IMG/VR virus record: IMGVR_UViG_2728369592_000008
Source: a virus
Lineage: Duplodnaviria > Heunggongvirae > Uroviricota > Caudoviricetes
DNA: 20,348 bases
Reading direction: 5' to 3' (one strand)
Part shown: positions 1,369 to 20,348 of the stretch, piece by piece
Layout: each line of letters starts with the position of its first letter
Position numbering within the stretch: the stretch's first letter is position 1
The notes under the pieces: model-generated
What the model was told of the DNA's origin: nothing
Seen by the model: only the letters and a program-made list of their open reading frames with translations
The model's database searches: none
Made by a program: the position numbers and the translations under genes

Positions 1369-1444
1369 GCCGATATAGCTCAGTTGGTAGAGCAGCGCAT
1401 TCGTAATGCGAAGGTCGTAGGTTCGACTCCTATTATCGGCACCA
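1369..1444 (+). tRNA. thrW: tRNA-Thr, anticodon CGT (decodes ACG)
   Basis: 76 nt, GCCGATATAGCTCAGTTGGTAGAGC ... GGTTCGACTCCTATTATCGGCACCA; anticodon CGT at 1402-1404; encoded CCA end; T-arm GGTTCGACTCC. Confidence 0.9.
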
Positions 1445-1460
1445 TTCAAACATCTCCCCA

Positions 1461-1548
1461 AGTCTACTAAAGTCTTTCAAAACCCCTTATAATCCGCGTA
1501 TTAAAGCCCCGCTCGTCTTTTGACGTCTACTAAAGTCCCTCAAAATCT
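1461..1548 (+). repeat. Two direct repeats sharing GTCTACTAAAGTC...TCAAAA in attL; candidate integrase arm-type or accessory-factor sites
   Basis: AGTCTACTAAAGTCTTTCAAAACC (1461-1484) and CGTCTACTAAAGTCCCTCAAAATC (1525-1548), between the tRNA end and int. Confidence 0.5.
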
Positions 1549-1609
1549 ACGGTCAGATGGGGGTACTTATGGGGGTATTTGCTGTTCGGTTTAGTGGAGG
1601 TACCCCCAA

Positions 1610-2824
1610 GTGAAACTCAATGCCCGTCAAATAGACACAGCCAAGCCAAAAGAGAAGGCTTACAAGCTGGCCGATGGTGGCGGTTTGTATCTCTTGGTAA
1701 AACCTAATGGAGGTAAATACTGGCGACTTAAATATCGTGTAGCTGGTAAAGAGAAGCTATTGGCACTAGGTGTTTATCCTGAGGTTACTCTAGCCGATGC
1801 TCGGGCAAAACGTGAAGATGCGAAAAGAGGTATCGCTGGTGGTATCGATCCGATGGAAGCGAAACGAGAGGAAAAGATTGCCCGGGAAACGCAGTTAAAC
1901 AACACCTTCAAAGATATTGCCATTGAGTGGCACAGCAGCAAATTAAAAAAATGGTCTGCTGGTTATGCTTCAGACATCCTCGAAGCCTTCAACAAAGATG
2001 TGTTCCCTTACATTGGCAAAAAACCCATCGCCGAAATCAAACCACTTGAACTTCTGAATGTGCTGCGTCGCATCGAGGGGCGCGGTGCTACAGAAAAAGC
2101 CAAAAAAGTGAGGCAACGGTGCGGGGAAGTTTTCCGCTATGCAATAGTCACTGGTCGCGCAGAGTATAACCCTGCACCAGACCTTACTAGCGCGATGCAA
2201 GGCCATGAATCTAATCATTACCCTTTCCTTACAGCCAAAGAATTACCTGATTTTTTCAAGGCATTGTCCAGTTACTCAGGAAGCGCATTGGTTGTTATGG
2301 CGGCTCGTCTACTGATTATCACCGGCTTGCGGACTGGCGAACTACGTGGCGCATTATGGGATGAAATTGATTTCAACAAGGCTATCTGGGAGATACCCGC
2401 TTCACGTATGAAAATGCGGCGGACTCATATTGTGCCATTGTCTGAGCAGGCTCTTTCGCTTATTGGGAAGATTAGAGAAATAACAGGCAATTACCCTCTT
2501 ATGTTTCCCGGGCGCAATGATCCAAGGAAAACAATGAGCGAGGCCAGCATAAACCAAGTGTTTAAGCGCATTGGCTACGCTGGACGTGTAACTGGTCATG
2601 GGTTCCGGCACACTATGAGTACGATTTTGCATGAGCAGGGCTATAACACCGCGTGGATAGAAACGCAGCTCGCTCACGTTGATAAGAACTCAATTCGTGG
2701 CACATACAACCATGCGCAATATCTGGATGGAAGGCGGGAGATGCTTCAATGGTATGCCGACTATATGGATTCTCTCGAGCATGGCGGAAATGTGGTGCAT
2801 ATGGTGTTTGAAAAACACGCATGA
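1610..2824 (+). CDS. Tyrosine-type site-specific integrase (P4-like integrase family)
   Basis: 404 aa, GTG start with GGAGG at 1596-1600. N-terminal arm-binding-like region (KLADGGGLYLLVKPNGGKYWRLKYR), C-terminal catalytic region with HGFRHT and the presumed catalytic Tyr in RGTYNHAQY. tRNA-adjacent. Confidence 0.9.
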   Translation: MKLNARQIDTAKPKEKAYKLADGGGLYLLVKPNGGKYWRLKYRVAGKEKLLALGVYPEVTLADARAKREDAKRGIAGGIDPMEAKREEKIARETQLNNTFKDIAIEWHSSKLKKWSAGYASDILEAFNKDVFPYIGKKPIAEIKPLELLNVLRRIEGRGATEKAKKVRQRCGEVFRYAIVTGRAEYNPAPDLTSAMQGHESNHYPFLTAKELPDFFKALSSYSGSALVVMAARLLIITGLRTGELRGALWDEIDFNKAIWEIPASRMKMRRTHIVPLSEQALSLIGKIREITGNYPLMFPGRNDPRKTMSEASINQVFKRIGYAGRVTGHGFRHTMSTILHEQGYNTAWIETQLAHVDKNSIRGTYNHAQYLDGRREMLQWYADYMDSLEHGGNVVHMVFEKHA

Positions 2825-2967
2825 AACAACTGGACAAGTATACAGAGGTTTACTAAAGTATAGGGGAGTAGATTGATAAAAACTCACAGAGGATTGCTAT
2901 TTAACAGTTAGCCCTGGAGAAGGGCAATCGCTCTTTTATAAACGAAGGTGTATTGAGCCTTCTACGT

Positions 2968-3031
2968 CGCTGACAAAGCGGAATGTTCTTTAACAGGCTT
3001 TGGCGCTGACAAAGCGCAATTGTTCTTTAAA
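2968..3031 (+). promoter_or_regulatory. Two ~28 bp tandem direct repeats (CGCTGACAAAGCG-AAT-TTCTTTAA) in the int-alpA intergenic region
   Basis: 2968-2995 and 3004-3031 nearly identical; followed by a 13 bp inverted repeat AAGACCGCAATAT / ATATTGTGGTCTT at 3133-3165 upstream of alpA. Confidence 0.45.
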
Positions 3032-3252
3032 ACTACTGGATGTCACGCCTAATAGCGTGATCCTGCCGAAATGCAGGGTAGCTCTACCCTTGTGGAGCAA
3101 ACAAACCAAAACAATCTGACTATCTTTTATAAAAGACCGCAATATGTTTTTCATATTGTGGTCTTTGGCGTATTCGACATTTGACGCAAATAAAACTCTC
3201 GCCATTCGTTGCAGGAGGGAGTTATTGCGTCATTAGTACAGGATATTAATAA

Positions 3253-3456
3253 ATGGCTAATTACAATTCATTAATTCGTCTCTCTGAAGTTCAAAGGCGA
3301 ACTGGTTATAGCAAAGCATGGATTTATCGTCTTATTAGTCAGGGGAGGTTCCCTAAACAGGTAAAAATTGGAAGTCGGGCAATTGCTTTTGTTGAGTCTG
3401 AAATAGATGAATGGATTGAGAAGTGTATATTAGAATCTAGAGACGAGGTGGCCTGA
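3253..3456 (+). CDS. alpA: AlpA-family phage transcriptional regulator (small HTH DNA-binding protein)
   Basis: 67 aa; LIRLSEVQRRTGYSKAWIYRLISQGRFPKQVKIGSRAIAFVESEIDEWI is typical of AlpA / prophage CP4-57 regulator family; position right after the integrase. Confidence 0.8.
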   Translation: MANYNSLIRLSEVQRRTGYSKAWIYRLISQGRFPKQVKIGSRAIAFVESEIDEWIEKCILESRDEVA

Positions 3457-3887
3457 TGGAAAAGAAAAACCGCCCATTACAGGCGGCTAATTCAGATATT
3501 CGTGTATCTGATGTTACGCCCCTTACAAAATCCCTTCAAGCACCAAAGCGCACACCGAAAAAGCATCGTGCCAGAGTCTATATGCTGCGTACTGGTATAG
3601 AGGGATGGACAGAAAATGACATTCTTCGCTACTGCCGTCTGTCTTCTGGTCGTAACTATGCAACAGAGTTAGAACGCCAGCTTGGAATCACTCTGGAGCG
3701 TATCGACGAAAAGAATCCTGATGGTATCGGAACACACCTTCGCTACCGTTTCTCCTGCCGTGGTGATGTTCTGAAAGTGATCACTCATATTAACCATCTT
3801 GCGAACATAAATGATCACAACGGACTTTCTCAGCAGGAAATTGCCGACATTCTGAAACTCTACCCGGACGCGTTTAACGCCGCCTAA
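3456..3887 (+). CDS. Hypothetical protein (basic N-terminus); start overlaps the alpA stop
   Basis: 143 aa ORF, ATG overlapping the alpA TGA (translational coupling). No family recognised. Confidence 0.55.
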   Translation: MEKKNRPLQAANSDIRVSDVTPLTKSLQAPKRTPKKHRARVYMLRTGIEGWTENDILRYCRLSSGRNYATELERQLGITLERIDEKNPDGIGTHLRYRFSCRGDVLKVITHINHLANINDHNGLSQQEIADILKLYPDAFNAA

Positions 3888-3899
3888 CGGAGACTGAAA

Positions 3900-4733
3900 A
3901 TGAACATCGAAAAAAGCAGATTAATTTCTGAGGCCGCCCCTCATCTGAACGCCTCTCTGGGCACAATTAACGGTAATGAATTTGCCGCAATTGTCCCGGT
4001 TATTCCTGGTCATATCGGTGGGCGTGAAACCAATATTGTTAGCGCAAAAGCGTTACACAAAGCGTTGGGCGTGGGAAAAGACTTCTCTACATGGATCACT
4101 GATCGCATCTCTGAATATGACTTCACCATTGGGCACGATTACTCAGTCCATAAAACAATTTCCCCAAATTTGGGGAAAAGCCCGAATGGCGCGGCTTACA
4201 GCAAGATAAAGCACTCTGGCAGACCCGGCAAAGACTATCTGTTAAGTGTCGGAATGGCGAAAGAACTGGCAATGATCGAACGCAATGATCAGGGTCGCGC
4301 TATCCGCCGTTATTTCATCCAGTGCGAGGAAGAATTACAGCGTAGCGTGCCTGAAATCGCCGCCCGCTATCGTCGCCAGCTAAAAGCCCGTCTCAGTGCC
4401 GCAAACAACTTTAAGCCAATGTGCGATGCGCTGAATATGGCCCGTGCCGAGATGGGTAAAACGACGCAGCAACACCACTACACAAACGAGAGCAATATGA
4501 TTTCTCGTATCGTTCTTGGTGGGCTAACTGCTAAGCAGTGGGCGCGGATAAATGGCTATTCTGGCGAACCTCGCGACCATATGAACGCAGAACAGCTTGA
4601 GCACCTCTCATATCTCGAAAGCACCAATATCACGTTAATTGATATGGGCATGGAATATGAGCAGCGCAAAGGAGAACTCACCCGCCTGTCGCAACGCTGG
4701 CTCGCCAAGCGTCTGGAGGTGGTCAATGTCTAA
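3900..4733 (+). CDS. Phage antirepressor-like protein (AntA/KilAC-type DNA-binding domain), tentative
   Basis: 277 aa; segment DYLLSVGMAKELAMIERNDQGRAIRRYFIQCEEEL resembles the conserved core of phage antirepressor / Rha-like domains. Recognition by eye only. Confidence 0.5.
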   Translation: MNIEKSRLISEAAPHLNASLGTINGNEFAAIVPVIPGHIGGRETNIVSAKALHKALGVGKDFSTWITDRISEYDFTIGHDYSVHKTISPNLGKSPNGAAYSKIKHSGRPGKDYLLSVGMAKELAMIERNDQGRAIRRYFIQCEEELQRSVPEIAARYRRQLKARLSAANNFKPMCDALNMARAEMGKTTQQHHYTNESNMISRIVLGGLTAKQWARINGYSGEPRDHMNAEQLEHLSYLESTNITLIDMGMEYEQRKGELTRLSQRWLAKRLEVVNV

Positions 4734-4908
4734 GCCAACAGGAACACCACAACCACAAAAACGCTACAAAGATGCCCACGGAGCACTCGTTACTGTCGAA
4801 AGCGTGTCTCACAACCGAGTGACGTTTTATCGCGACGGGTATCAATCGCCATGCGTACAACCGCTGGCGCGTTTCATGAAGGAGTTCGCGGAGGTTAACA
4901 AATGCTAA
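4726..4908 (+). CDS. Small hypothetical protein (60 aa)
   Basis: ATG at 4726 preceded by GGAGGTGG (4714-4721); it is the in-frame internal start of the listed 4639-4908 ORF and overlaps the end of the upstream gene. Confidence 0.45.
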   Translation: MSKPTGTPQPQKRYKDAHGALVTVESVSHNRVTFYRDGYQSPCVQPLARFMKEFAEVNKC

Positions 4909-5969
4909 CCGTCCAGAAGAAGACATTTTCACTGGCTGGTATGTCGCCAAAATCCAGCAATATGACGGCAAAGTCAGGCATTAATACCGCAGATACAAGC
5001 AAAGTTTATCATTTGCTGGTGGTCGGAACGGATGCCTTAACCATATCAGAAATCTCGGGCGATGATATTAGCATTGAGAAGGTCAGCGGCTGCGCCAGAA
5101 AATTTCTGGTCGTAGATGATGTCTTCCGCTCGTGTAGTGACTCCACAAAAACATTCGTCCACGCGCGTGACGTTAACGAAATGAGCGCGATGTACTGTGC
5201 ATCTGGTGCTTCCAATAGCGAGTTTTCGGAGTCCATAAAAAAGAGCTTGCCGTTATGCGGCAACACGGTTTATGGTTATAAGGCACCTCATAAAACGGGT
5301 GCCGGGATTGGCGTCCTGGTAAATCGAATGGCGACATATGACGCGCCGAGCGTCTTTTTTTATGTCGTAGGTCTGACTCACCCATTTTTTGGGCGTTGGT
5401 GTATAATCCAGCGCCTTTGTCAATCAATGGTGGCTCAGGCAGGGGCTTCTTCGGAAGCGCCGGTATCCATTCGAGCCGGTTACGCCAACCCTGTCTGGGC
5501 TACCACCAGCGAAATTGGCGTTTCCGGTGGTAGCGTTACATGCTATCGAATGGAGGCTGCCACATGCTGGCTACTACCCCTACCCAAAAACCGCAATTTA
5601 TCTGGATTATCGCCGCAGTTCGCCGCGATTGCCCGACAATTACCGCCAAAATTCATCATATTGCTGCCGAGTCTGAACGCGATGCTCGCCGTTCTCTGGT
5701 GCGCGATCACGTCTGCTTTTTTGCTGGTCGTATCCGCATGGAGGTGGCTCATGATTAAAACCTACGATGTGCATATGGATCCCCTCGAACGCACAAGCCA
5801 GATCATCACACTGACAGAAGTGATTAACGACATTCTGGTGAGCAACTCTCCCTCACGAGACGAAAGACTGAAGGCGTTACTCGCGATATTGGATCTCGCC
5901 GTTCGTGACGTTCATTTCCTGCTGGAAGGTGGCGAAATGCCAGGAAAAACGGGGGCAACCAATGAATAA
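4902..5969 (+). CDS. Unresolved ORF (355 aa as read); possibly a fusion artefact or overprinted region, with a likely independent 72 aa gene at 5751-5969
   Basis: Start at 4902 has a good RBS (GGAGG 4890-4894) and the frame stays open for 355 codons, but the middle section has atypical Ser/Cys/Trp-rich composition. An in-frame ATG at 5751 has its own strong RBS (GGAGGTGG 5740-5747). Confidence 0.3.
5564..5758 (+). CDS. Small hypothetical protein (64 aa), alternative frame nested in the 4902-5969 ORF
   Basis: ATG 5564 with GGAGG at 5552-5556; protein-like composition ([15 protein letters not shown]); stop overlaps the ATG at 5751. Conflicts with the 4902-5969 reading; only one model can be fully right. 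Confidence 0.35.
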   Translation: MLATTPTQKPQFIWIIAAVRRDCPTITAKIHHIAAESERDARRSLVRDHVCFFAGRIRMEVAHD

Positions 5970-6156
5970 CTCAATTAATACCCCTCGCCTTACGTCCGCA
6001 CTTCAATTAATCGAGCAAGCAGCGGCTGTCCTGGTTGCTGTCAGTCTTTCGGCTGAAGAAATGGACGCTGCTGATGTCGTGGATGCGATTAAAGCGTGCT
6101 CATCTTTGGTTAACGATGCCCGTGCCGAGCTGGTAATTCTTGGGGGTGAAAAATGA
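5962..6156 (+). CDS. Small hypothetical protein (64 aa)
   Basis: ATG 5962 preceded by a G-rich RBS, overlaps upstream stop; part of a chain of coupled small ORFs. Confidence 0.45.
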   Translation: MNNSINTPRLTSALQLIEQAAAVLVAVSLSAEEMDAADVVDAIKACSSLVNDARAELVILGGEK

Positions 6157-6416
6157 ATATCAACTTAATTTATCGTCATCCGTGTGAGCTGGAAATTGAA
6201 TCATTGCTGGGGCGTGAAGAGCCATATCCAGACACATTCACTCCCGCAGATTGCGCGACTGAACGGCTTACCAGAGCGCGCACAGGTCTGGTTCATGTGA
6301 TGAATGAGATTGTTCCCTCGGTGGGAGGGGAACAGGCGACAGTAATCAATAGCTGGCTACAAAAAGTTACCTCCCTGATAGATATCGGTTTAATCGATGT
6401 GGAGAGTGCGAAATGA
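6153..6416 (+). CDS. Small hypothetical protein (87 aa)
   Basis: ATGA start/stop overlap with the upstream ORF. Confidence 0.5.
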   Translation: MNINLIYRHPCELEIESLLGREEPYPDTFTPADCATERLTRARTGLVHVMNEIVPSVGGEQATVINSWLQKVTSLIDIGLIDVESAK

Positions 6417-6634
6417 CCAACATCCAGCTCATTGAAGCGCAATGTCGCATCGAACAGGTTCAGACTGTTTTAGGGTTCTGGCTTGAAGGGGCCAGCCCCA
6501 GCAACAGAGACAAGTTAATGATTGGCGCGGTTATGTCACTGCTTAATGGCGTACCAGAAGCTATTCAGGAAGCGGACGAATTGTTGGGCAAATATGAGTT
6601 ACAGAATCATTCAGGCGAGGCGAAACATGAATAA
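6413..6634 (+). CDS. Small hypothetical protein (73 aa)
   Basis: ATGA start/stop overlap with the upstream ORF. Confidence 0.5.
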   Translation: MTNIQLIEAQCRIEQVQTVLGFWLEGASPSNRDKLMIGAVMSLLNGVPEAIQEADELLGKYELQNHSGEAKHE

Positions 6635-7229
6635 TTTCTTAACTTTCCATGCAGAAGCAACGCCTGACGGCGTAAACATCATGTACCGCAGCAACGATGG
6701 CATGACAGAACGCGTTGAGGCCATCTCATATATTGATGCCGTAAATCGTCTGGATGCCGGGGATTATGACGATAAACCAGATGAAGGTATGTCAATACAT
6801 CTCGCTATTGCCGATGGCGGCAACCAGGGATATTTCGATTACACATCACAGCATAACGTCATTATGTGGAGATGGCTGATCGCAACAGTATTCATGCTGG
6901 AAATGAGAGAGGAAAACGGCACTGTCAGCATCATTGATGATACTGGCAATCCTTCCGAAGTGGCTGTTTATTCCAACGGCATCGTCGCCATGCCGCTGTA
7001 TCCAGTAGCAGAGCGCCTCGCTATGGCAAACAACATTGAGGGCGCGATGATAGAACGTTTTGGCATCGAGTCTGGCACAGAACGCGCCATCATTTTCTAC
7101 AGAGCCATGATGGATGTGGAACAAGGAGCACTGACTCCATTTGGTCGTGAAACGCTTGCTGAACTTCACAACAGCTTTATAGCTGAACTGAATGAAAACG
7201 GCATGCCAGCGGAACCAGTGACGCACTGA
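6627..7229 (+). CDS. Hypothetical protein (200 aa)
   Basis: In-frame ATG at 6627 overlapping the previous stop; the listed 6522 start would overlap the upstream gene by ~110 nt and is less likely. Confidence 0.5.
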   Translation: MNNFLTFHAEATPDGVNIMYRSNDGMTERVEAISYIDAVNRLDAGDYDDKPDEGMSIHLAIADGGNQGYFDYTSQHNVIMWRWLIATVFMLEMREENGTVSIIDDTGNPSEVAVYSNGIVAMPLYPVAERLAMANNIEGAMIERFGIESGTERAIIFYRAMMDVEQGALTPFGRETLAELHNSFIAELNENGMPAEPVTH

Positions 7230-7239
7230 GGATGGAGCC

Positions 7240-7581
7240 ATGATTACTAAAAATTTCCGACTGAATGCGCTGGCAAATAAGTATGCGTCGGCACTGTATA
7301 ACCACATTACCTCCACCAGCGGCGGGGACTATTTCATGGTTGATGCGGACGGCGAGGCCGTCCGTGTGGAAATCGTCAATGGAGTAAAAGGCGTTCGCAG
7401 CCTGATCGATAGCTACACACTGGCAGCCATGAAAGTGTTCTACCCGCAGTGGGAAACCGTGGGGATCGAGCTTCTTGAACGTTGCGTCACTAAGGACGGA
7501 TTGACTGACGTCGGGCGTGAGATATGGCAAAGCATGGTTAATGACATGGGCGCAACTGTAGCGGGAGGTTCTCATGCGTGA
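7240..7581 (+). CDS. Hypothetical protein (113 aa)
   Basis: ORF with GGATGGAG RBS upstream; co-oriented with neighbours. Confidence 0.5.
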   Translation: MITKNFRLNALANKYASALYNHITSTSGGDYFMVDADGEAVRVEIVNGVKGVRSLIDSYTLAAMKVFYPQWETVGIELLERCVTKDGLTDVGREIWQSMVNDMGATVAGGSHA

Positions 7582-7945
7582 AAATGCAGAAATGGCGCTT
7601 AGCTCCGCAATCGGAGAGCAGGTGGCAAAGATTGCTGGTGCTGTGTGGATTCATAACCTTCATTCTACTGGTGAAGAGAAAATGGTAATTCAGACGCCAG
7701 AGGGACGCACCATTACTACATCTCTGAAGCCGTCAGATGTTTGTGATCTGATTTGCGCATTCATGTACCCAGCAATGAGGACTGTCCACGGCGATAAGTG
7801 GAAACTTGCGACAACCGCTGAATTTGATATGTGGCTAAACAATGATGGCATGCTGACTGATTACGGAATAACCAAGTGGCAGATGCTGGTTAGCCATATC
7901 GCAAACGCTATAGACCACGTGGGGTACGGTGATGCGAAACATTGA
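7574..7945 (+). CDS. Hypothetical protein (123 aa)
   Basis: ORF with GGGAGG RBS; overlaps neighbours at both ends. Confidence 0.5.
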   Translation: MRENAEMALSSAIGEQVAKIAGAVWIHNLHSTGEEKMVIQTPEGRTITTSLKPSDVCDLICAFMYPAMRTVHGDKWKLATTAEFDMWLNNDGMLTDYGITKWQMLVSHIANAIDHVGYGDAKH

Positions 7946-11435: not shown

Positions 11436-11451
11436 AAATGGATGGCATCGC

Positions 11452-11913: not shown

Positions 11914-12584
11914 TTACCCACATAGCTCATAAACATCTCAATCGTGCCGTATACGAAAAAGGCGGTGATGGTGGTGCCTCTAAAGCTCAGGCGAAGGCCC
12001 AGCAGCAGGCAATTGATTTGCAGCGCGAGCAGTGGAATACGGTGATGAATAATCTCAAGCCGTATGCAGAAGTCGGATTGCCTGCTTTACAACAACTACA
12101 AGGACTGATGACTCTGGAAGGGCAGAATAAAGCCGCGAATGATTTCTTTGGTTCTGGTTTATATAAAACACAGGCAGATCAGGCCCGTTATCAGAACCTT
12201 GTCTCAGCAGAAGCTACCGGGGGGCTTGGCTCAACAGCTACCAGTAACCAGTTATCTTCCATTGCGCCCATGCTTTATAACAATTGGCTTAGTGGGCAAA
12301 TGCAAAATTATGGAAACCTGCTAAATGTCGGGATGAATGCGGCATCAGGGCAGGCAACAGCAGGGCAAAACTACGCCAATAATACCGGGCAACTCTTGCA
12401 GGGGCTTGGCGCTATTCGTGCAGGTCAGGCGCAGCAGCCATCCAGTCTTGCGCGTGGTATTGGTGGGGCGGCATCAGGCGCTTTAGCGGGTGCGCAACTT
12501 GGTTCCGTTGTTCCGGGTATAGGTAATGTCGCCGGGGCTATTGGTGGTGGGCTTATTGGTCTTGTTGGGGGGCTTGGATTCTAA
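11907..12584 (+). CDS. Gly/Gln-rich protein with C-terminal glycine-zipper hydrophobic tail; possibly P22 gp7-like ejection protein
   Basis: 225 aa; RBS AAGGAA; C-terminus GIGGAASGALAGAQLGSVVPGIGNVAGAIGGGLIGLVGGLGF; size and position match the first ejection protein of P22-like phages (from memory). Confidence 0.5.
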   Translation: MLITHIAHKHLNRAVYEKGGDGGASKAQAKAQQQAIDLQREQWNTVMNNLKPYAEVGLPALQQLQGLMTLEGQNKAANDFFGSGLYKTQADQARYQNLVSAEATGGLGSTATSNQLSSIAPMLYNNWLSGQMQNYGNLLNVGMNAASGQATAGQNYANNTGQLLQGLGAIRAGQAQQPSSLARGIGGAASGALAGAQLGSVVPGIGNVAGAIGGGLIGLVGGLGF

Positions 12585-14005
12585 TGGCGACATGGCAACT
12601 TGGCGGGCTGCCTAGCATGGCACCGCAAAATGATAATGCTCCTCGTTCTTCCGTTCCTCAGCCTGTGCAGTATCAGCAGCAGCCAAACGTAGGTTTAATG
12701 GCGCTACAGGGGCTAAGAGGCGTTGCTGAGATTAATCAGCAGGCACGTCAACAACAGCGTAAAGCAGAGTTTCAGAAAGCATATGCCGGGGCTTTTGAGT
12801 CTGGAGACAGAAACAAAATGCGCAGTCTTATTTCTGAGTATCCAGAAGAATTTGAAAGCGTTCAGAAAGGGATGGGCTTTATTGATGACGACCAGAGAAA
12901 TTCTATTGGTCATCTTGCGACTAGTGCTCAAATCGCATCTTCGCTCGGAACTGGGGCATTTGGAAAATTCATAGCAGATAACGAAGATGAAATGCGTCGC
13001 TTGGGAATTTCTCCTGAGTCTGTTGCCGAAATGCATGTTAATGATCCACAGGGATTCCAGCGGCTTGCTGGTAGTATGGCACTGTTTTCTCTCGGTCATG
13101 AGAAGTATTTCGATATCAAAGATCAAATGGAAGGTCGGGATATTGAGCGTGGCAAGTTGGCAGAAACAATCCGCAGCAATCAGGCTGGCGAAGCACTTCA
13201 GGCGAGAGGGCAGGATATTAGCCGAGCAAATGCGTTAACGTCAGCATATGCACCAACAGCAGCAATGCAGAATTACAATCAGTACGCTCAAATGTTAAAG
13301 GAGGATCCAGAGGGGGCGGCGGCATTTGCGGCAGCGGCTGGAATTAATACAAACGCCAAAAAATTAATGAGTGTTAGAGAAAACGATGATGGCACTGTCA
13401 CAAAATACTACACAGACGGAAGTGAAGAGCAGGGAAAACTAAACCAGCCAATATCTGGAGATGGGTTTCGTCCAATAGCTTTGCCAACAGCCCAAAAGAT
13501 CATGGAAAAGTCGCCAGAAGGGGCTAAAAAAGCTGCTGGATTTGCATACAGGGTTAGGGATGCTCTTGATTCAATAGATACACTGAAAGACCAGCTTAGC
13601 CCACAGCGAGTGGCGATCATTAATAATGCTTTGGGTAATGGGACGCTGGCTAACTTAACGCTCAGCCCAACAGAGCAGCAATACGTTGTTAATGCTAATG
13701 ACGCAATAATGGCAATACTCCGTCAGGAAACAGGGGCAGCTATCGTACCTGCTGAAATGTCAAAATATTATCAAATGTATTTCCCTCAGCCTGGCGACTC
13801 CACAAAAACCATTGATACCAAGCGCCGGAAGATGGAAAACCAGTTCAATTCGCTGAAAGCTGCTTCTGGTCGAGCTTATGATGCTTTGCGGGTTATTTCA
13901 GCAGTTGACAGAGGAACTTCTTCTTCGTCGCAGACATTGCCGCAATCTGAGCAGGTATCACAGCCAGCAGCCAGCAGTAACTTTTCTTCACTATGGGGTG
14001 ATTAA
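12584..14005 (+). CDS. Hypothetical protein (473 aa); possibly P22 gp20-like DNA-transfer/ejection protein
   Basis: ATG overlaps upstream stop (TAATGG); size and order consistent with the middle ejection protein of P22-like phages. Confidence 0.5.
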   Translation: MATWQLGGLPSMAPQNDNAPRSSVPQPVQYQQQPNVGLMALQGLRGVAEINQQARQQQRKAEFQKAYAGAFESGDRNKMRSLISEYPEEFESVQKGMGFIDDDQRNSIGHLATSAQIASSLGTGAFGKFIADNEDEMRRLGISPESVAEMHVNDPQGFQRLAGSMALFSLGHEKYFDIKDQMEGRDIERGKLAETIRSNQAGEALQARGQDISRANALTSAYAPTAAMQNYNQYAQMLKEDPEGAAAFAAAAGINTNAKKLMSVRENDDGTVTKYYTDGSEEQGKLNQPISGDGFRPIALPTAQKIMEKSPEGAKKAAGFAYRVRDALDSIDTLKDQLSPQRVAIINNALGNGTLANLTLSPTEQQYVVNANDAIMAILRQETGAAIVPAEMSKYYQMYFPQPGDSTKTIDTKRRKMENQFNSLKAASGRAYDALRVISAVDRGTSSSSQTLPQSEQVSQPAASSNFSSLWGD

Positions 14006-16110
14006 TGGCTAAAGCATGGAAAGATGTTATCGCCTCTCCACAGTATCAGGCGTTAGCACCAGAACAAAAAGCGCAGGCTCAGGAGCAATACTTCAATGAA
14101 GTCGTTGCCCCGCAAGCCGGAGAAAGTGTAGAGCAGGCTAAGCAGGCTTTTTATGCTGCCTATCCACTACCATCAACGAATGAAATAGACCGAGCCCAAT
14201 CAGCAACTCAAAATATTCAACATACATCATCTGATAATTCTCTTGCGTCAGGGTATGCAAAGTTAGCTACTCAGCAAAGAGAGGGGCTTGAGCGTTCAGC
14301 AGAACAGGGAGCCAGCCTTGGGGCTGCGATGCGCGATGCTATAACAGGCGAAAGCCGAATGACTCCAGAGATGGAGAGACTGCAAAATGTCGACCTTGCC
14401 CCAGAGTTAACCTCACTCAGCATGGATGCTCTAAAAGCTCGATGGTCTCAACTTTTCGGCTCTGACGCATCTCAGGAAAAGATTCTTCAGAGCATGGGAG
14501 CGAAATTAAGGCAGGATGAGAAGGGTAACACTATCGTTTCCCTGCCATCCGGTGATTATGCTCTGAACAAGCCGGGTTTATCGCCGCAAGACGTGGCATC
14601 GTTTCTGGCTAATGCGCTGGCGTTTACACCAGCGGGCAGGGCCGGAACGGTGCTGGGGGCCATAGGGAAATCAGCAGCTACAGATTTAGCACTACAGGGA
14701 GCCACCAGCCTCGCTGGTGGAGAAGATATTGATCCGTTACAAACGGTAATTTCTGCTGGCATTGGTGGTATTGGTAAGGGGCTGGAAAATACAGCGAGTG
14801 CGGTTTCGAGGGCTGTTCGTGGTGATATGTCGCCTGAAGCAAAGGCTGCTGTCGACTTTGCATCGGAAAGAAATCTGCCGTTAATGACCAGTGACATGCT
14901 GAAAGATAAAACCTTTATGCAGAGTCAGGCTCAGACATTAGGCGAAAGAGTTCCTTTTTTTGGAACCGGTAAGAATCGGCTGAATCAACAACAAGCACGA
15001 GAAAATTTAGTCAGAACATTTAGCGATGGTCTGGGTGGCATTTCTGATAAACAGCTTTATGAATCTGCGACTAAAGGGCAACAAAAATTCATTGAGGCAG
15101 CAGGAAAGCGATATAACCGCATAATTGACGCTATGGGGGATACCCCTGTCGATCTCTCAAACACGGTAAAAGCTATCGACAATCAGATTGCTGTGTTAAG
15201 CCGCCCGGGTAAATCTCAGGATAGAGCCGCGGTAAAAGTCTTGCAGCAATTTAAAGACGATATCACCAGCGGACCAAATGACCTGCGTCTGGCGAGGGAA
15301 AACAGAACCGATCTTCGAAAGCGGTTTATGGCGTCATCTGACACTGTTGATAAAGATACGCTCCAGAAAGCCAGCGATATTATCTACAAGGCATATACGG
15401 CGGATATGAAAAAAGCCGTAGCCAAAAATCTTGGAGCAGACGAAGCCATTAATATGGCAAGGGTTGATCGCTCATGGTCTAAATTCAATGACATGATGGG
15501 AAGAACGCGCGTTCAAAAGGCAATAGCCAGCGGCAAGGCCACGCCTGAGGATGTAACAAAACTCGTTTTTAGCCAAAGCCCATCAGAACGTTCTCAGCTT
15601 TACAGGCTTCTGGATGACAATGGTAGGCAAAACGCACGAGCAGCCATAGTTCAGAATGCTGTAGATAAGGCGACTGATCCGTCTGGAAATATCAGTGTTG
15701 AGAAGTTTATTAATGCGTTACACCGGAACAGGAAGCAATCAGCAACTTTCTTTAAAGGCGTACATGGAAAGGAACTGGACGGCGTTATTAAATACCTCAA
15801 CGATACAAGACACGCGGCAAAAGCGAACGTTCAAAACTTAAATGGTCAGCAGCTTTATGGATTGTTAGTTGGTGGTGGCATCATAAACGCAGCAGTATTA
15901 GCGGGGATGCTAAAAACGGCTGCGTTTGTTGTTCCTGCTGCTGGTGCCGTAGGCGGAGCCGCGAAGGCATACGAAAGCCCTGTTATACGAAATGCCTTGT
16001 TACGTTTGGCAAATACGCCAAAAGGTAGCACAGCATATGACAGAGCGATCAGTACGGTCACACAATCGCTCACCAGAGTCGCACAGGCATCACAAAAAGA
16101 AGCTCAATAA
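14005..16110 (+). CDS. Hypothetical protein (701 aa) with C-terminal hydrophobic hairpin; possibly P22 gp16-like DNA-transfer/ejection protein
   Basis: ATG overlaps upstream stop; Ala/Gln/Lys-rich; hydrophobic stretch LLVGGGIINAAVLAGMLKTAAFVVPAAGAVGGAA near the C-terminus. Confidence 0.5.
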   Translation: MAKAWKDVIASPQYQALAPEQKAQAQEQYFNEVVAPQAGESVEQAKQAFYAAYPLPSTNEIDRAQSATQNIQHTSSDNSLASGYAKLATQQREGLERSAEQGASLGAAMRDAITGESRMTPEMERLQNVDLAPELTSLSMDALKARWSQLFGSDASQEKILQSMGAKLRQDEKGNTIVSLPSGDYALNKPGLSPQDVASFLANALAFTPAGRAGTVLGAIGKSAATDLALQGATSLAGGEDIDPLQTVISAGIGGIGKGLENTASAVSRAVRGDMSPEAKAAVDFASERNLPLMTSDMLKDKTFMQSQAQTLGERVPFFGTGKNRLNQQQARENLVRTFSDGLGGISDKQLYESATKGQQKFIEAAGKRYNRIIDAMGDTPVDLSNTVKAIDNQIAVLSRPGKSQDRAAVKVLQQFKDDITSGPNDLRLARENRTDLRKRFMASSDTVDKDTLQKASDIIYKAYTADMKKAVAKNLGADEAINMARVDRSWSKFNDMMGRTRVQKAIASGKATPEDVTKLVFSQSPSERSQLYRLLDDNGRQNARAAIVQNAVDKATDPSGNISVEKFINALHRNRKQSATFFKGVHGKELDGVIKYLNDTRHAAKANVQNLNGQQLYGLLVGGGIINAAVLAGMLKTAAFVVPAAGAVGGAAKAYESPVIRNALLRLANTPKGSTAYDRAISTVTQSLTRVAQASQKEAQ

Positions 16111-16128
16111 CTGGTAGCCATGGATGGC

Positions 16129-16743
16129 TTAGATATCTCTGCTGTCTCCATTAGGAAATAAAAGATAATATGGATTTGCCTTTCTTGCTCTCCTTGCTTC
16201 ACCTGGATACCTGTTAGTCAGTAGTTTGCATAATGAGCAGAGAACAACACTCAAGAAAATTCCGAATGAGAAGATCAATATCTCACCAAAAATCAATGGC
16301 GATATTAAATTTTCAGGATTTAATGATAAGTCAATGTTAAAAACATATTGAGCAATACCAGTAAGTATCAATAATATAATCCCTATGGAATACATTGCTG
16401 TTTCCCAAACATCAGACAGTCTATTTTTGAATTGTTCGCTGGAGTAGTAGTTTGTTATAAAGTCAGAAAAATCACTCTCATATGCATCATCTTTAGGTGA
16501 TGTTAGAAATCCTCTGTCTCTCCATACCTTCTCCCAATTAGTCGATTCTTTTTTTAAGGAAAAATAAATATGTATTGCCAAAAGGATAGCCAAAATTGGT
16601 GTTAGCTCTAAAAAATAGAATGTTATGGAATAAATAATACTGCCATGTTCAAACTCATCTGGGACTATCATGTATGCACAAAAATAAATTGAAAAGTACA
16701 CCATGCAGATAGTTAGCAATTCTTTAGTATCTTTTCTGCTCAC
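16129..16743 (-). CDS. AT-rich polytopic inner-membrane protein (about four predicted TM helices); candidate superinfection-exclusion or defence effector
   Basis: 204 aa, GTG start with AAGGGGG RBS; hydrophobic segments at roughly aa 9-27, 36-61, 116-135, 147-176; visibly lower GC than flanking genes; convergent with the upstream operon. Confidence 0.55.
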   Translation of the reverse strand: MSRKDTKELLTICMVYFSIYFCAYMIVPDEFEHGSIIYSITFYFLELTPILAILLAIHIYFSLKKESTNWEKVWRDRGFLTSPKDDAYESDFSDFITNYYSSEQFKNRLSDVWETAMYSIGIILLILTGIAQYVFNIDLSLNPENLISPLIFGEILIFSFGIFLSVVLCSLCKLLTNRYPGEARRARKANPYYLLFPNGDSRDI

Positions 16744-16960
16744 ACCAACCCCCTTTAGCGTTGTTTAGAATGGCAATCATCATATATCCAAGACATGGCA
16801 TTTGGTACATAGCTTGGGTCGGGATTTCAAATCCGATCCCCGTTGATGGGGCCGTTACAGTACGCGCATATCCGCTTTATGTGAAACAGGAAGATTTTTC
16901 TGATATCACTGCCACAGCAAAACACCAATTTCGTGACCAGTACGCGCGCGAGGGGTATCA

Positions 16961-16979
16961 GTTGCAAAAATTTTGCAAC
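16961..16979. promoter_or_regulatory. Perfect 19 bp palindrome GTTGCAAAA-A-TTTTGCAAC flanked by GACCAGTACGC direct repeats
   Basis: Palindrome at 16961-16979; GACCAGTACGC at 16934-16944 and 16987-16997; related CAGTACGCGC motifs near 16858 and 17225. Confidence 0.45.
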
Positions 16980-17612
16980 TACGTCCGACCAGTACGCACA
17001 CGATGGCGGGGGATACCATGAAACTGTTCTCTACACGAGACAGAGTGGTGGTGATGTGTTGATTATCGGCGTATATGCGCACAGGACGCGCTATGACGAT
17101 GTTTTATGCGGGTACACCAATCACATGTATCTGATGTGATAAATCGTGTTACATGACATCTCATGTTGTGCTGGTGGTTATCACGACGTTCTGAATCTGG
17201 CCTTTGCCTGATATTTTGCGACAAGTACGCGCGCGTAGCATCGAAATTATCGGATGGCGTATGCTGCTGGCAATATGAAGACCGATAGTATTAACCGAAA
17301 AGCGATTAAGGAGTGCCAACTTTTCAGTAGAGAAACTAGCCAGCATAGGAAAATGTAGAAATTACCCAATTAATAGGTAAAAGTTATTGACACAGCCTGT
17401 AGTGGATAACGATATGAATAAAAACCACATATAGTGGTTTTTCGTGAGTGATGATAGTATCTATGTTAGTTTCCTAAGTAACTGTGCATTGACATGTGGA
17501 TAACTTCGGATAGAGTTACAGGCAACCGAGCCCGATCCTCTGTTTCTCCGCCGCCGATTTCAGGCATGTGAGTTTCACGGTCGGGCCTTTTATTATCTTT
17601 TGTTTCGCCACT

Positions 17613-18590
17613 ATGATTGCCGCAAAGCCTCATAAGGACTATCACGAATTGCTAGGATTGCTACTTGAACGTGGCATGATTATCAATGATCGAAATCGTG
17701 CGATACGTAAGCTGTCGCAGGTTGGATATTATCGATTGTCAGGTTTTTGGTACCCATCAAGAATTATTGCGACAACAGATAAAGGTCTTTCGTACAGAAC
17801 AGACCGATTTCTTGCTGGTACCAGTTTCGAGAAGACGTACGATCTATATCTTTTTGACAAAAAACTGCGTCTTTTGATGATTGATGCTATCGAAAGAATA
17901 GAGATTCATGTTCGTTCAGTCATCGCGCATGAGGTTGGTCGCAATGATCCACTTGCCTACATGTCATCAAAATACATTAATCCAAAATTCTCATCTGCCT
18001 TCGAGCATTGGGTGTATAAGCAAAAAGTAAAATTAGACGAAAGCAGAGATGACTGTATTGAATGGCATCGAAGCCAAGGCAAGGAGATTCCATTTTGGGT
18101 GGCGGTGGAGACCTGGGATTTTGGTCAGATGTCTAAATATTATGCGATGCTTAATGGTCATATGCAGGGGAAAATTATACGTCGTTTTGGCATTGATAAT
18201 AAGCAGACATTTGCAAAATGGTTGAAGTGCCTTAATCTCATAAGGAATCGTTGCGCTCACCATTCCAGAATATGGAATAGAAAGCATCCCCGAGTTCCAG
18301 TACCGGATAATGAATACTTTGACGGACTTAATCTCCATCCAGAGAGTTGCGAGAGGATTTTTAGCGCGATCTGTATTATCTGGTACTTAGTTAAACGACT
18401 TGGTCCGGGATCAACATGGCTTCGGCAAATTGCAGACCTTATTGACTCTAAACCAAATGTTCCCGGATGTGGATATGATTCAATGGGTTTACCTGCTAAA
18501 GGATTCCCACGAGAGAGATTCTCTCAGGACTTAGGTTTTGTTATCGCCGACAACGACCCTGTAGCTGAAGGGCGGAAAGGGAGCGATTGA
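17613..18590 (+). CDS. Abi_2-family abortive infection protein (AbiD/AbiF-like)
   Basis: Signature stretches match the family: KPHKDYHELLGLLLERGMIINDRNRAIRKLSQVGYYRLSGFWYP, LYLFDKKLRLLMIDAIERIEIHVRSVIAHEV, LIRNRCAHHSRIWNR. ATG 17613 preferred; the listed 17568 start adds 15 hydrophobic residues. Confidence 0.8.
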   Translation: MIAAKPHKDYHELLGLLLERGMIINDRNRAIRKLSQVGYYRLSGFWYPSRIIATTDKGLSYRTDRFLAGTSFEKTYDLYLFDKKLRLLMIDAIERIEIHVRSVIAHEVGRNDPLAYMSSKYINPKFSSAFEHWVYKQKVKLDESRDDCIEWHRSQGKEIPFWVAVETWDFGQMSKYYAMLNGHMQGKIIRRFGIDNKQTFAKWLKCLNLIRNRCAHHSRIWNRKHPRVPVPDNEYFDGLNLHPESCERIFSAICIIWYLVKRLGPGSTWLRQIADLIDSKPNVPGCGYDSMGLPAKGFPRERFSQDLGFVIADNDPVAEGRKGSD

Positions 18591-18619
18591 GCGATAAATA
18601 TCATTTATACACTGATCAA

Positions 18620-19060
18620 TTACTGAAGCAGCGTATTGATTCTTTTAATATTGTTACCCTGACGCTTCCACGCGCTGTAAATGTCTTTATCCCACGCTTT
18701 ACCAGCTTTTGTTTGGTAGCCTGCTTCATTGAGCCGTTCCGCTATCACACGCCCATTATCAAATCCCTGTCGGATGGTATCGGCAATGATCTTTATAACT
18801 GCCGTTTCGTTATATGGCTTTGGTGGGATGTTCGGCTTTCCGGCAATAAGCGACGCAGCGGCTTTTTCCATGCGCTCCACCAGCCCAAGCATTCGTGAAT
18901 CAATAGACTTTTCCGGCTGTCCCAGCTTCATGCGAATCGCATCAACAAGCCAGGAGGTTTTATCCCCTCCAGAAGCGAGAACAGACCGATTAAACTCATC
19001 CTGCAATTCAGATGGGATGCGGAACGCGACCAGATTAGATTTGCTCATTGCAAAGACCAT
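18620..19060 (-). CDS. Ribbon-helix-helix DNA-binding protein with C-terminal recombinase-type (catalytic-domain-less) DNA-binding module
   Basis: 146 aa; N-terminal SNLVAFRIPSELQDEFNRSVLASGGDKTSWLVDAIRMKL fits an RHH fold; C-terminal IADTIRQGFDNGRVIAERLNEAGYQTKAGKAWDKDIYSAWKRQ resembles the DNA-binding 'recombinase' domain of large serine recombinases. No clear RBS; start could be 19048. Confidence 0.55.
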   Translation of the reverse strand: MVFAMSKSNLVAFRIPSELQDEFNRSVLASGGDKTSWLVDAIRMKLGQPEKSIDSRMLGLVERMEKAAASLIAGKPNIPPKPYNETAVIKIIADTIRQGFDNGRVIAERLNEAGYQTKAGKAWDKDIYSAWKRQGNNIKRINTLLQ

Positions 19061-19077
19061 ATCAGTGAGTAATATCC

Positions 19078-19109
19078 ATACAGTATACCACTGTATAACA
19101 CTGTTATAC
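19078..19109. promoter_or_regulatory. Overlapping palindromes upstream of the RHH gene (candidate autoregulatory operators)
   Basis: ATACAGT-ATACC-ACTGTAT (19078-19096) and GTATAACA-C-TGTTATAC (19093-19109). Confidence 0.45.
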
Positions 19110-19157
19110 GCTCAAATATCAGCCAGAAAATAACGGACCAATCACAAAGCTATCGCT

Positions 19158-19286
19158 GTGTTGTTGGTTCAGAGCTGGGCTGTGTTGGTTCAAAATGAGT
19201 TGATGTTGGTTCAATATTTCAGAAAAAACACAATAAAAACAACGATCTTTACAAATTGAACCAACTGAACCAACTGAACCAACACC
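19158..19286 (-). repeat. Second iteron cluster, inverted copy of the ori cluster (crr-like cis replication site?)
   Basis: 19247-19286 is the exact reverse complement of the 40-mer at 10711-10750; three further TGTTGGTTCA copies at 19162-19215 across an AT-rich spacer. Confidence 0.6.
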
Positions 19287-19319
19287 TTTTTGCTTATCTA
19301 TATAATCTGAGAGGCAGAA

Positions 19320-19607
19320 ATGATAAGGGACAGGAAAGCTGAAGAACTGGAGTCAAAAGGGCTATACCGGAGAGCTGCCGCACGATGGGCAGAAGTCATG
19401 ATGCTGGCAGATGGCGATAAAGAACGTGAACATGCAGCAAACAGACGCTCTGAATGTATCCGTAAGGCGGCACGCCCACCAGCAACTACAGACAGATTCG
19501 GAGATTTAAGACAGGCAGTTAAGCGGACTCATTCGGCTCTTGGTATGGATGAGGAAGCGAGAGGGTATTTCAGGCGTTATCGCGATAAAGATTGCCAGAG
19601 ACAGTAA
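19320..19607 (+). CDS. PerC-family transcriptional activator-like protein
   Basis: 95 aa; N-terminal RKAEELESKGLYRRAAARWAEVM resembles PerC/Pch family activators carried on prophages; RBS GAGAGG upstream. Confidence 0.55.
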   Translation: MIRDRKAEELESKGLYRRAAARWAEVMMLADGDKEREHAANRRSECIRKAARPPATTDRFGDLRQAVKRTHSALGMDEEARGYFRRYRDKDCQRQ

Positions 19608-19868
19608 TGCTCTCTCTGTTTTGGCAAATTACCCCTCACTTTGAAGGGATCGGAGCTATAAAAATGGTGTTATCCGGCTTCCTGCATTGCAGGTTTTCGA
19701 AAGAATCAATGGGTTAGGTTATCGTGCAAATTTGCACTCTGCCAGCCAACGCAATTTCTCGTTGGCGGAAATATCAGGTATTTACTGAACGAACGGTCTA
19801 CCCGCCTGTTCAACTACCAGTTGTACATGGCTGCTTTATGTGCAAATGGTGGTGAGAGAAAATTGTTT

Positions 19869-19888
19869 GGGGGTACTTTTGGGGGTAT
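19869..19888 (+). repeat. GGGGGTACTTTTGGGGGTAT motif near attR, near-identical to the int-proximal motif at 1559-1578
   Basis: 19 of 20 positions identical to GGGGGTACTTATGGGGGTAT (1559-1578); both lie ~70-115 bp inside the island ends in the same orientation. Confidence 0.5.
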
Positions 19889-20348
19889 CTCCAAAGATGT
19901 AACTGGAAAATGTCTTTATATATCAATGTATTTTTATTGTTTGTTTTGTTCCTATTATCGCACCATTTAAATCAATAAGTTATCTCACATTTAAGTAAAC
20001 TACGTTCTCCTCTTGTGCCTTTGATTTTGCTCGCGTGCGCGGTGAAATGCCTGACTGAAAGGTGAGCATATCGACGAACCATTTCGAGAGTTTCCCATCT
20101 GCTCATTTTTAAGTGCAAGCAGGAAAACACCGGACTAAACCAATCAGCTGTTCGAAAATGGCAAGCGGATTAATATGCCATGGCGGGGCAGCTTTGAGCC
20201 GCACGCATGGGGTGTGGCAAGCCTGATGGATTTTGCTGTGCCTGTGGTGGCGTGTTTGCTGGTTTGGCTGTTGGTTAAACGCGAAAGTCATAATGCCAGG
20301 GGAATACCGCAGGGTGTTCAGGTTTTGCATAAAAAAGCCCACCATTAA

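Follow-up and report, generated by a model that had tools for sequence, protein, structure and literature searches.

The DNA considered here is the IMG/VR virus record IMGVR_UViG_2728369592_000008, a stretch of 20,348 nucleotides (the window, by which we mean the whole of this stretch), in which an insert of 18,521 bp (1447-19967) lies in the tRNA gene thrW of Escherichia coli. The insert carries an integrase, an AlpA-family regulator and a primase-helicase in its left half, followed by four P22-like ejection genes and a SieA-like gene, and an abortive-infection gene and a PerC-family regulator towards its right end (Table 1). Taken together our comparisons suggest that it is very probably an intact phage-inducible chromosomal island (PICI) of the EcCIMP1 family, integrated in thrW and living as a satellite of P22-like (Lederbergvirus) phages. 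The family to which the element belongs is a published one, and what we add to it is an apparent copy of a pac site, a pair of iteron clusters, a SieA homolog and a refined position of the crossover. EcCIMP1 itself was described by Pick, Stadel & Raivio (ISME J 2025; PMC11773190) as a 19,963-bp PICI in the tRNA-Thr gene of E. coli MP1, in the proA-yagU interval, with the attachment (att) core TCCTATTATC. They found that it neither excises nor circularizes unless the P22-like phage vB_EcoP_Kapi1 is there and has been induced, that excision requires alpA and int, and that Kapi1 transduces it at very low frequency; how it is packaged they left open, naming a 'DNA transfer' gene and a DUF2824 gene as candidates only (PMC11773190).

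Both ends of the element lie in the window, as the initial annotation had claimed for a complete element of ~18.5 kb at thrW. The gapped pattern TCCTATTATC[N0-1]GCACCATT has exactly two matches in the window, at 1428-1446 with GG and at 19950-19967 with a single G, and gave no match in 100/100 shuffles of the window. The repeat and its one-nucleotide gap therefore stand much as first reported (1429-1446 and 19951-19967), except that the repeat begins one base further left, at 1428 and 19950. It had also been predicted that genomes with an empty site would join exactly at these ends, which was borne out: a synthetic empty junction of 827 nt (window 1001-1446 joined to 19968-20348) runs unbroken at 100% identity in 25/25 complete E. 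coli genomes among the matches listed, and of the 82 genomes in which it is at least 80% covered, 78 match at 99% identity or above. The whole element is present at a coverage of at least 80% in 101/5,426 complete E. coli genomes (~2%), and the flanks to the right of attR vary among the genomes that carry it. In all copies compared (the window, MB49 and EcCIMP1) attL has GG, and the single G at attR is found in the same three contexts, each with a different right flank. Since copies with unlike right flanks all show this gap, it does not appear to be a random mutation, and the single G would derive from attP. Moreover, GG is linked to the bacterial left arm and G to the left arm of the element, and therefore strand exchange is predicted to take place to the right of the GG/G position, within (G)CACCATT, and not within the published core TCCTATTATC. 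Putative arm-type repeats of the form TGGGGGTACTT(A/T)TGGGGGTAT, found at 1558 and 19868 and arranged in the same way in MB49, LS45 and EcCIMP1, would flank the core on both sides as expected for a functional attP.

A comparison with the MP1 locus reveals how close the two elements are and where they part. Window positions 1-12744, from proA to the first 160 nt of gp20 and covering the left 11.3 kb of the insert, are 97.7% identical to that locus in nucleotide sequence, and past 12744 similarity to EcCIMP1 is found only at 16816-17300 (96%) and 19162-19403 (87%). The two share the tRNA-Thr site between proA and yagU, the att core, attL, attR and the arm-type repeats; at 97.7% they share int, alpA, antA, the DUF4222 gene, the region of the pac-like block described below, isrK and C4, icd, the primase, iteron cluster A, the 53-amino-acid open reading frame (ORF), gp14 and gp7; and both have PerC near the right end and two iteron clusters. 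However, the body of gp20 and gp16 are other alleles, and where EcCIMP1 has a 906-amino-acid protein with a lytic-transglycosylase domain followed by a lipoprotein, this element has a 701-amino-acid gp16-like protein followed by the SieA-like one. The cargo of EcCIMP1 includes alpA_1 and other genes whereas that of our element consists of AbiD and a 146-amino-acid ORF, the pac-like block is a different allele, and the lengths are 20.0 kb and 18.5 kb. The element thus has the att site and backbone of the EcCIMP1 lineage together with a different post-primase module and cargo, and is a variant of EcCIMP1 and not the same element. The non-coding stretch 16816-17300 keeps its 96% identity to EcCIMP1 despite different flanking genes and holds three GACCAGTACGCGCGCG-like repeats (16935, 16987 and 17220); an Rfam scan of 16700-17600 gave no match, and no clear promoter or terminator was seen in 16816-17300.

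We found the same gene order, int-alpA-primase-ejection cassette-PerC, at a second and unrelated chromosomal site, yicC/dinD, where it is accompanied by a different integrase and flanked by the 12-bp direct repeat GGTGTACATAAT (at 3146/21300 in one locus and 2967/20200 in another). A variant at this site, Ecol_244, is without gp14 and gp7 and retains gp20 and gp16. In its general makeup the element agrees with Gram-negative PICIs, being an island within 10-20 kb with att repeats and a terminal tyrosine integrase, with alpA after int, a primase-helicase with iterons, and no capsid, tail, terminase or lysis genes; the oddity is that it encodes the virion-internal ejection proteins gp7, gp20 and gp16. 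With PICIs of the EcCICFT073 and EcCIEDL933 type it shares int-alpA-primase, a PerC-like accessory gene, presumably a helper-induced AlpA circuit, and the absence of capsid genes, whereas their post-primase module is unrelated according to Pick et al. (PMC11773190).

Genes were assigned from Pfam, PHROG, PADLOC, Rfam, NCBIfam, PGAP annotation and BLAST (Table 1), and the domain searches confirm the mosaic that the initial annotation had recognized, an integrase-AlpA-primase core joined to P22-like ejection genes and to defense cargo in the form of AbiD. PADLOC found on the island only AbiD and a weak PDC-S22 match on the antirepressor, and NCBIfam had no match for the ejection proteins, the SieA-like protein or the 53-amino-acid ORF. 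The latter has no family match, and we would guess that it could possibly be a ribbon-helix-helix protein or another small DNA-binding regulator. In EcCIMP1 the AlpA homolog acts as master activator and excision factor, and the PerC homolog represses LEE, the enterocyte-effacement locus (PMC11773190).

Table 1. Features of the window, and of the post-primase slot in related loci (aa, amino acids; sRNA, small RNA)
Feature	Position	Strand	Basis
proA, left end of window	1-1254
thrW tRNA-Thr(CGT), integration target, attB in its 3' end	1369-1444	+	ARAGORN; Rfam tRNA
attL core TCCTATTATCGGCACCATT, thrW 3' end	1428-1446	+	repeat pattern; empty-site junction
Putative integrase/excisionase arm-type sites GTCTACTAAAGTC	1462 and 1525	+	repeat search
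Putative arm-type repeat TGGGGGTACTTATGGGGGTAT, partner at 19868-19888	1558-1578	+	repeat search; presumed function
Tyrosine integrase (Arm-DNA-bind_3, Phage_int_M, Phage_integrase)	1610-2824	+	Pfam; BLAST
AlpA-family regulator	3253-3456	+	Pfam Phage_AlpA E=7e-20
143-aa ORF	between AlpA and AntA-type antirepressor	+
AntA/AntB-family antirepressor, candidate helper derepressor	3900-4733	+	Pfam; PHROG
DUF4222 small protein	4726-4908	+	Pfam; PGAP
Pac-like block, 107-nt fragment, ~ nt 268-374 of P22-type small-terminase gene 3; 22-mer GAATGTTTTTGTGGAGTCACTA at 5135-5156	5050-5156	-
isrK-family sRNA	5283-5360	+	Rfam 67.1 bits (gathering score 50)
C4 antisense RNA (P4/P1-type RNA immunity factor)	5423-5510	+	Rfam 79.5 bits (gathering score 45)
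Icd-like cell-division inhibitor	5540-5758	+	NCBIfam NF033153
Six small conserved backbone ORFs	5962-7945	+	PHROG; PGAP
Primase-helicase, 919 aa (Zn_Ribbon_Prim, Toprim_3, DUF927)	7929-10688	+	Pfam
Iteron cluster A, six exact TGAACCAAC: three tandem minus-strand, AT-rich spacer, three plus-strand	10714-10824
Conserved 53-aa ORF (MAISVKPVLISEKQMEAIKK...)	11274-11435	+	PGAP; tblastn in 31/66 relatives
gp14 homolog (DUF2824, ejection-protein assembly factor)	11452-11913	+	Pfam E=2e-61
gp7 ejection protein	11907-12584	+	Pfam P22_gp7 E=2e-72
gp20 ejection protein (Inj_translocase)	12584-14005	+	Pfam E=6e-58; PHROG
gp16-like ejection (DNA transfer) protein	14005-16110	+	phrog_770 E=2e-161; synteny; PGAP 'P22-gp16 family' / 'injection protein'
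SieA-like inner-membrane superinfection-exclusion protein, 204 aa	16129-16743	-	PHROG; homology to HS1 SieA
AbiD/Abi_2 abortive-infection protein, defense cargo	17568-18590	+	Pfam; PADLOC AbiD E=8e-58
146-aa ORF	18620-19060	-	no significant family match
Iteron cluster B, six exact TGAACCAAC, mirror image of cluster A	19163-19283
PerC-family regulator	19320-19607	+	Pfam
Putative arm-type repeat TGGGGGTACTTTTGGGGGTAT, partner of 1558-1578	19868-19888	+	repeat search
attR core TCCTATTATCGCACCATT, single G	19950-19967	+	repeat pattern
Slot gene, related locus L151	14632-18039
Slot gene, related locus L152	15686-18823
Slot gene, related locus L175	17230-20964
Slot gene, related locus L144	17927-20545
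Slot gene, related locus L169	14758-17421
Slot gene, related locus L193	~18300

The initial annotation had recognized no capsid, terminase or lysis genes, and as far as genes are concerned this holds, since Pfam, PHROG and tblastn scans of the insert found none for capsid, portal, terminase, tail or lysis; what could not have been recognized there is a piece of a small-terminase (terS) gene, non-coding and 107 nt long. This pac-like block first showed itself as a 102-nt match inside the small-terminase gene of the prophage in strain LS45, and is 91.6% identical to the E. coli phages Bas106, Dewey, Louie and IME10 and 86% identical to P22. Taking as reference the P22 pac site annotated in the P22-pbi record AF527608 (positions 4-25), we observe that similarity starts at the first base of this site and stops sharply 107 nt further on, with both flanks unrelated and no terS reading frame around it. 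Both copies at the yicC site have the identical block, and EcCIMP1 has a diverged allele of it. A survey of the complete E. coli genomes reveals it in 687/5,426, either under a satellite 'ash family protein' annotation or in prophage terS, and one copy is annotated by PGAP as a partial 'DNA-packaging protein'; a 100% match to the block under that name, considered as the cognate prophage, proved to be another satellite copy that PGAP lists as a pseudogene fragment. A conserved 30-mer from the block gave 127 matches (120 IMG/VR loci plus other loci), 113 of which lie in full terS ORFs, and nine complete satellite fragments without a surrounding terS ORF were found as IMG/VR or genome copies, the window and its relatives included. 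As to the 'ash family protein' itself, PGAP places a 355-amino-acid ORF of this name at 4902-5969 (+), overlapping the block, isrK and the C4 RNA, with the Icd-like gene in another frame; no Pfam or NCBIfam model matched it, and the call is probably an annotation artifact that masks the two small RNAs and the pac fragment.

The satellite 22-mers have the form GAA(T/G)(G/A)TTTTTGTGGAGTCACTA and are identical to, or one base off, the 22-mer of a full 162-amino-acid TerS that is encoded both on an IMG/VR contig and by the ST131 strain MB1159, there in a complete P22-like prophage. The 22-mer of the EcCIMP1 allele is that of the MB1159-type TerS, with one mismatch to that of the window, and in one satellite the identity to the MB1159 prophage allele reaches 99.1% over all 107 nt. 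Within the five satellite alleles the 22-mer varies at 2/22 sites and the rest of the block at 14/55, the 85 nt after the 22-mer being a mosaic of different phage terS alleles, whereas the phage alleles comprise eight distinct 22-mers. These patterns suggest that the block is a pac site taken over from a phage, which selection maintains and recombination with helpers renews, and on balance we favor the view that it works as a packaging signal. PICIs of the EcCICFT073 and EcCIEDL933 type have cos sites and use Rpp to redirect lambda-like terminases, whereas here the candidate signal is a fragment of P22-type terS bearing the pac site and the accompanying module consists of ejection proteins. 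The pac-type pathogenicity islands of Staphylococcus (SaPIs) are packaged by the headful into helper capsids, a full-size head holding island multimers, and redirect packaging with a TerS of their own; our element has no TerS gene and instead appears to copy the pac site of its helper. Literature searches on satellites with P22-like pac sites turned up no prior description.

All four genes of the ejection module are full length, and between the thrW and yicC copies they show a dN/dS of 0.06-0.19 (32 synonymous and 10 non-synonymous changes), compared with 0.05 for the primase, values that point to purifying selection. With P22-like phages the element shares the 14-7-20-16-sieA gene order and families as well as the pac-containing segment of terS (86-92% identical), but it differs from them in having no terminase, portal, coat, tail or lysis genes and in that its piece of terS is the short non-coding fragment. 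In fact none of the features of a P22-like prophage (lambdoid early region, terminase, portal, scaffold, coat, tail needle, tailspike) is present in the element, and, the ejection genes and the terS fragment apart, the structural genes of Kapi1 and of the LS45 prophage show no nucleotide similarity to it. The LS45 prophage could be ruled out as the source of the cassette, its ejection proteins being only 23-54% identical to those of the satellite with gp16 unalignable, and a search for a phage donor among 50,697 phage records gave only patches of 68-89% identity.

The gene after gp16, on the opposite strand, encodes a protein that aligns with an experimentally validated SieA, the type-B one of prophage HS1, at 34% identity over 118 residues (E = 2e-9). 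The protein of the element carries the motif NRYPGEARRARK (NRYPGEAR..K; conserved form FnRYPnEAnnFNK) and has a pattern of hydrophobic segments like that of HS1 SieA, and from this likeness we take it to be a SieA homolog. SieA blocks injection by P22-like phages, with escape mutations located in the C-terminal parts of gp20 and gp16, and the sieA-like genes examined in detail by Leavitt et al. were all in P22-like prophages (PMC10461980), whereas here the homolog is found in a satellite. The regions of gp20 and gp16 in which escape arises are also where our element diverges from EcCIMP1. In EcCIMP1 the corresponding slot (13132-13830) is occupied by a gene for a 232-amino-acid predicted lipoprotein (signal ending ...LLAGC), which is a candidate for the superinfection immunity of that island. 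We suggest, as a possibility and with some reserve, that the ejection proteins of the satellite serve its delivery or the bypass of exclusion, such that the island would place its own conduit proteins in helper procapsids and keep an exclusion gene at work while resident. Literature searches on satellites with ejection proteins or tape-measure proteins turned up no prior description, the paper of Tai (PMC11364771) dealing with another function borne by PICIs.

The replication module resembles that of P4. The iteron TGAACCAAC occurs in 12 exact copies in the window against 0.17 expected, and in each of its two clusters three copies in tandem are separated by ~43 nt of AT-rich spacer from three others that lie dispersed on the opposite strand, the two clusters bracketing the 8.3-kb cargo. 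The same layout of 3+3 and 3+3 copies is found in MB49, E118, Ecol_244 and EcCIMP1. Cluster A begins 26 nt past the primase stop, which is the position of crr in P4; in the annotated P4 record crr directly follows alpha, the second cluster (ori) lies 4.7 kb away, and both consist of 8-bp repeats in both orientations. The iteron pair thus recalls ori and crr of P4, it is not described in the literature that our searches turned up, and we consider it likely that the clusters form the replication origin. In addition to the two bidirectional clusters of short iterons, one of them right after the primase gene, the element shares with P4 an integrase (42% identical), the N-terminal 360 amino acids of the alpha primase (33%), a Vis/AlpA regulator (39%) and an immunity RNA of the C4 type. 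However, its helicase domain is DUF927, its presumed helper is a P22-like podovirus and not P2, and its iteron is TGAACCAAC where that of P4 is TGTTCACC. In a tblastn search with all P4 proteins the matches were limited to Int, the N-terminal domain of alpha and the ORF of the cI region, no homologs of sid, delta, psu, epsilon, gop, beta or cII were found in the element, and no cos-like site of the P2/P4 type with up to 4 mismatches is present in it. Judged by its sequence the element appears P4-like in replication and immunity, and yet it is not a P4-like satellite.

The initial annotation had left open whether the insert is a satellite, a decayed prophage or a defense island, and the evidence now favors the first of these. 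That thrW once held a P4-like island in tandem with a P22-like prophage, and that a deletion fused the left of the island to the right of the prophage (14-7-20-16-sieA) to leave an immobile remnant, seems to us very improbable, although the surroundings give it some color. Besides the prophage-like gene order, strain LS45 has a complete P22-like prophage and this element in tandem at thrW, the element after the prophage, and therefore P22-like phages and the satellite share the site. Moreover a fossil P22-like integrase end adjoins attR: positions 19950-20149 are 76% identical in nucleotide sequence to attL and the 3' end of the integrase gene of the LS45 prophage, and an integrase-fragment ORF (19972-20130, minus strand) is 68% identical in amino acids to the C-terminus of its integrase. 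This fossil is also found, annotated 'integrase', in genomes with an empty thrW. The link between thrW and P22 that had been drawn in support of a P22-like remnant does exist, but in another sense, in the fossil outside attR and in the tandem prophage of LS45, and the insert itself reads as a satellite and not as a remnant. On both sides of the cassette there is satellite sequence, with mirror-image iterons, PerC and an arm-type repeat at 19868-19888 that pairs with 1558-1578, and therefore a prophage remnant left in place cannot explain it. The same cassette occupies the same position at yicC/dinD with no P22-like prophage adjacent, and EcCIMP1, built on the same plan, is a mobile island (PMC11773190). 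We favor a satellite over a decayed prophage because the cassette lies between satellite sequences at two unrelated sites, because its genes are intact and under purifying selection, and because it has no close DNA relative among the phage records. As a separate observation, a point mutation in the attR core of the LS45 copy (TCCTCTTATC, ~30548 of that locus) might make that copy harder to excise.

We also consider it improbable that the element is mainly a defense island, in which the ejection, SieA-like and AbiD proteins would block P22-like phages in the resident cell, the ejection proteins acting as poison subunits in the procapsids of an invader, and transfer would be incidental. It is true that SieA-like and AbiD genes are present, that PICI hot spots hold anti-phage genes (PMC11364771) and that EcCIMP1 adds to immunity against superinfection by Kapi1 (PMC11773190), and the divergence from the LS45 prophage noted above is such that mixed assemblies could be non-functional. 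However, EcCIMP1 had no effect on the titre of Kapi1 after induction (PMC11773190), which speaks against strong poisoning of assembly for that pair, and the conservation of the pac-like block and of the machinery for replication and excision is a sign of active horizontal transfer. Both views can hold together, as satellites commonly both defend their host and spread, and a defensive role of the ejection proteins as poison subunits is a live alternative. A better case can be made, though we still hold it unlikely, that the terS fragment is not a packaging signal at all but the scar of a past recombination with a helper, or a patch of homology for passive packaging in helper concatemers. Recombination with phage terS clearly occurs, as the mosaic downstream of the 22-mer and the satellite allele nearly identical to a prophage allele demonstrate, and EcCIMP1 is transduced by Kapi1 despite an unrelated terminase. 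Neither version sits well with homology that in all copies starts at the very first base of the annotated pac site, with a 22-mer that is the most conserved part among satellite alleles and yet markedly different between phage alleles, or with the persistence of the fragment at both integration sites of the satellites and in 9 copies without a surrounding terS ORF.

Several further points weigh against the reading of the element as a satellite that is packaged and delivered by P22-like phages. For this copy excision, replication and packaging are predicted by analogy with EcCIMP1, and the right halves of the two differ beyond 12744. Only 2/21 strains with EcCIMP1 have a Kapi1-like prophage (PMC11773190), and P22-type ejection genes are found in just 2/66 species-level relatives of the primase (Escherichia sp. 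and Leclercia). We found no sigma-70-like promoter upstream of the cassette, and promoter and terminator scans around it were uninformative. Ejection proteins enter procapsids before the DNA, so that they could not be targeted to satellite-filled heads alone. The 22-mer of the window has 7/22 mismatches to the P22 pac site and 6 to that of the Louie type, and the block could, as said, be a scar or a patch of homology. Finally, Kapi1, the sole proven helper, has a 142-amino-acid small terminase (Kapi1 18704-19132) with no similarity to the block, and its att is unrelated to thrW, Kapi1 integrating at another site; Kapi1 would either make no use of the block or serve poorly as a helper. The unrelated terminase could, on this comparison of sequences, explain the poor transfer of EcCIMP1 with Kapi1.

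If the element is nevertheless a satellite of P22-like phages, its life cycle might run as follows. While resident, the island would be silenced by P4-type RNA immunity (C4 and isrK), and its host would be protected by the injection block of the SieA-like protein and by AbiD. Upon induction a signal from the helper would turn on alpA, Int and AlpA would excise a circle through the (G)CACCATT crossover, and the AntA-type antirepressor may target the repressor of the helper. The primase-helicase would then initiate at the two TGAACCAAC clusters in the manner of P4 ori and crr, concatemers would form, and a small terminase of the helper's gp3 type would recognize the borrowed pac site at 5135-5156 and start headful filling of P22 heads, each of which might hold ~2.3 copies of the island. 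With gp14, gp7, gp20 and gp16 of the island built into procapsids, the particles would carry the injection conduit of the satellite, and entry may succeed into cells in which the SieA of a P22-like prophage, acting on gp20 and gp16, blocks injection. Int would finally insert the island at thrW.

A scan with the primase as query, using one genome per species, places the element in a wider family. We found 66 loci at 50% identity or more across the Enterobacterales, most of them with a backbone of int, alpA, antA, icd and the 53-amino-acid ORF; this ORF was detected in 31/66 related loci and precedes whichever delivery module is present. In other genera the slot after it holds lone tape-measure proteins of 1,000-1,250 amino acids with no other large tail gene nearby (see Table 1 for slot genes), and those of Chimaeribacter, Pantoea and Symbiopectobacterium have clear Pfam matches to tape-measure families; the protein of Pluralibacter matches TMP_4, and that of Enterobacter intestinihominis falls below the Pfam threshold. 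Proteins with an SLT domain occupy the slot in Klebsiella and Leclercia (~870-890 amino acids) and in Enterobacter adelaidei (595 amino acids), and other contents are a T7 gp14-like protein and an Sf6-type small terminase. A recurring theme would be proteins that leave the virion to form a path for DNA entry, which is a lead and not a result. At present we can only speculate, and hold it rather doubtful, that the PICI backbone reserves the slot after the primase for a delivery module matched to the virion type of its helper, and that with a copied pac site it rides in helper-built particles with an injection conduit of its own, by which it could enter cells, helper lysogens among them, that block the conduit of the helper through exclusion of the SieA type. 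No such helper-matched strategy is described in the papers that our literature searches turned up. As a side observation, the contig CACSKA010000004.1, labelled Chryseobacterium sp. 18061 (Bacteroidota), has a primase 78% identical to that of the window along with AntA and Icd homologs of the Enterobacterales type, and is probably a contamination or a mislabelled assembly.

The element itself is an ordinary one, and its interest lies in an anatomy that bears on how a PICI without terminase, capsid or cos site enters P22-like heads. A copied pac site predicts that efficient helpers are phages with a gene 3 of the MB1159 type and not Kapi1, which would explain the very low transfer of EcCIMP1 by the latter. 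Selection on intact ejection genes that lie next to a SieA homolog suggests that satellites are a party to the struggle of P22-like phages and their lysogens over DNA injection. Islands of this kind move genes for abortive infection and exclusion, and virulence regulators of the PerC type, between strains.

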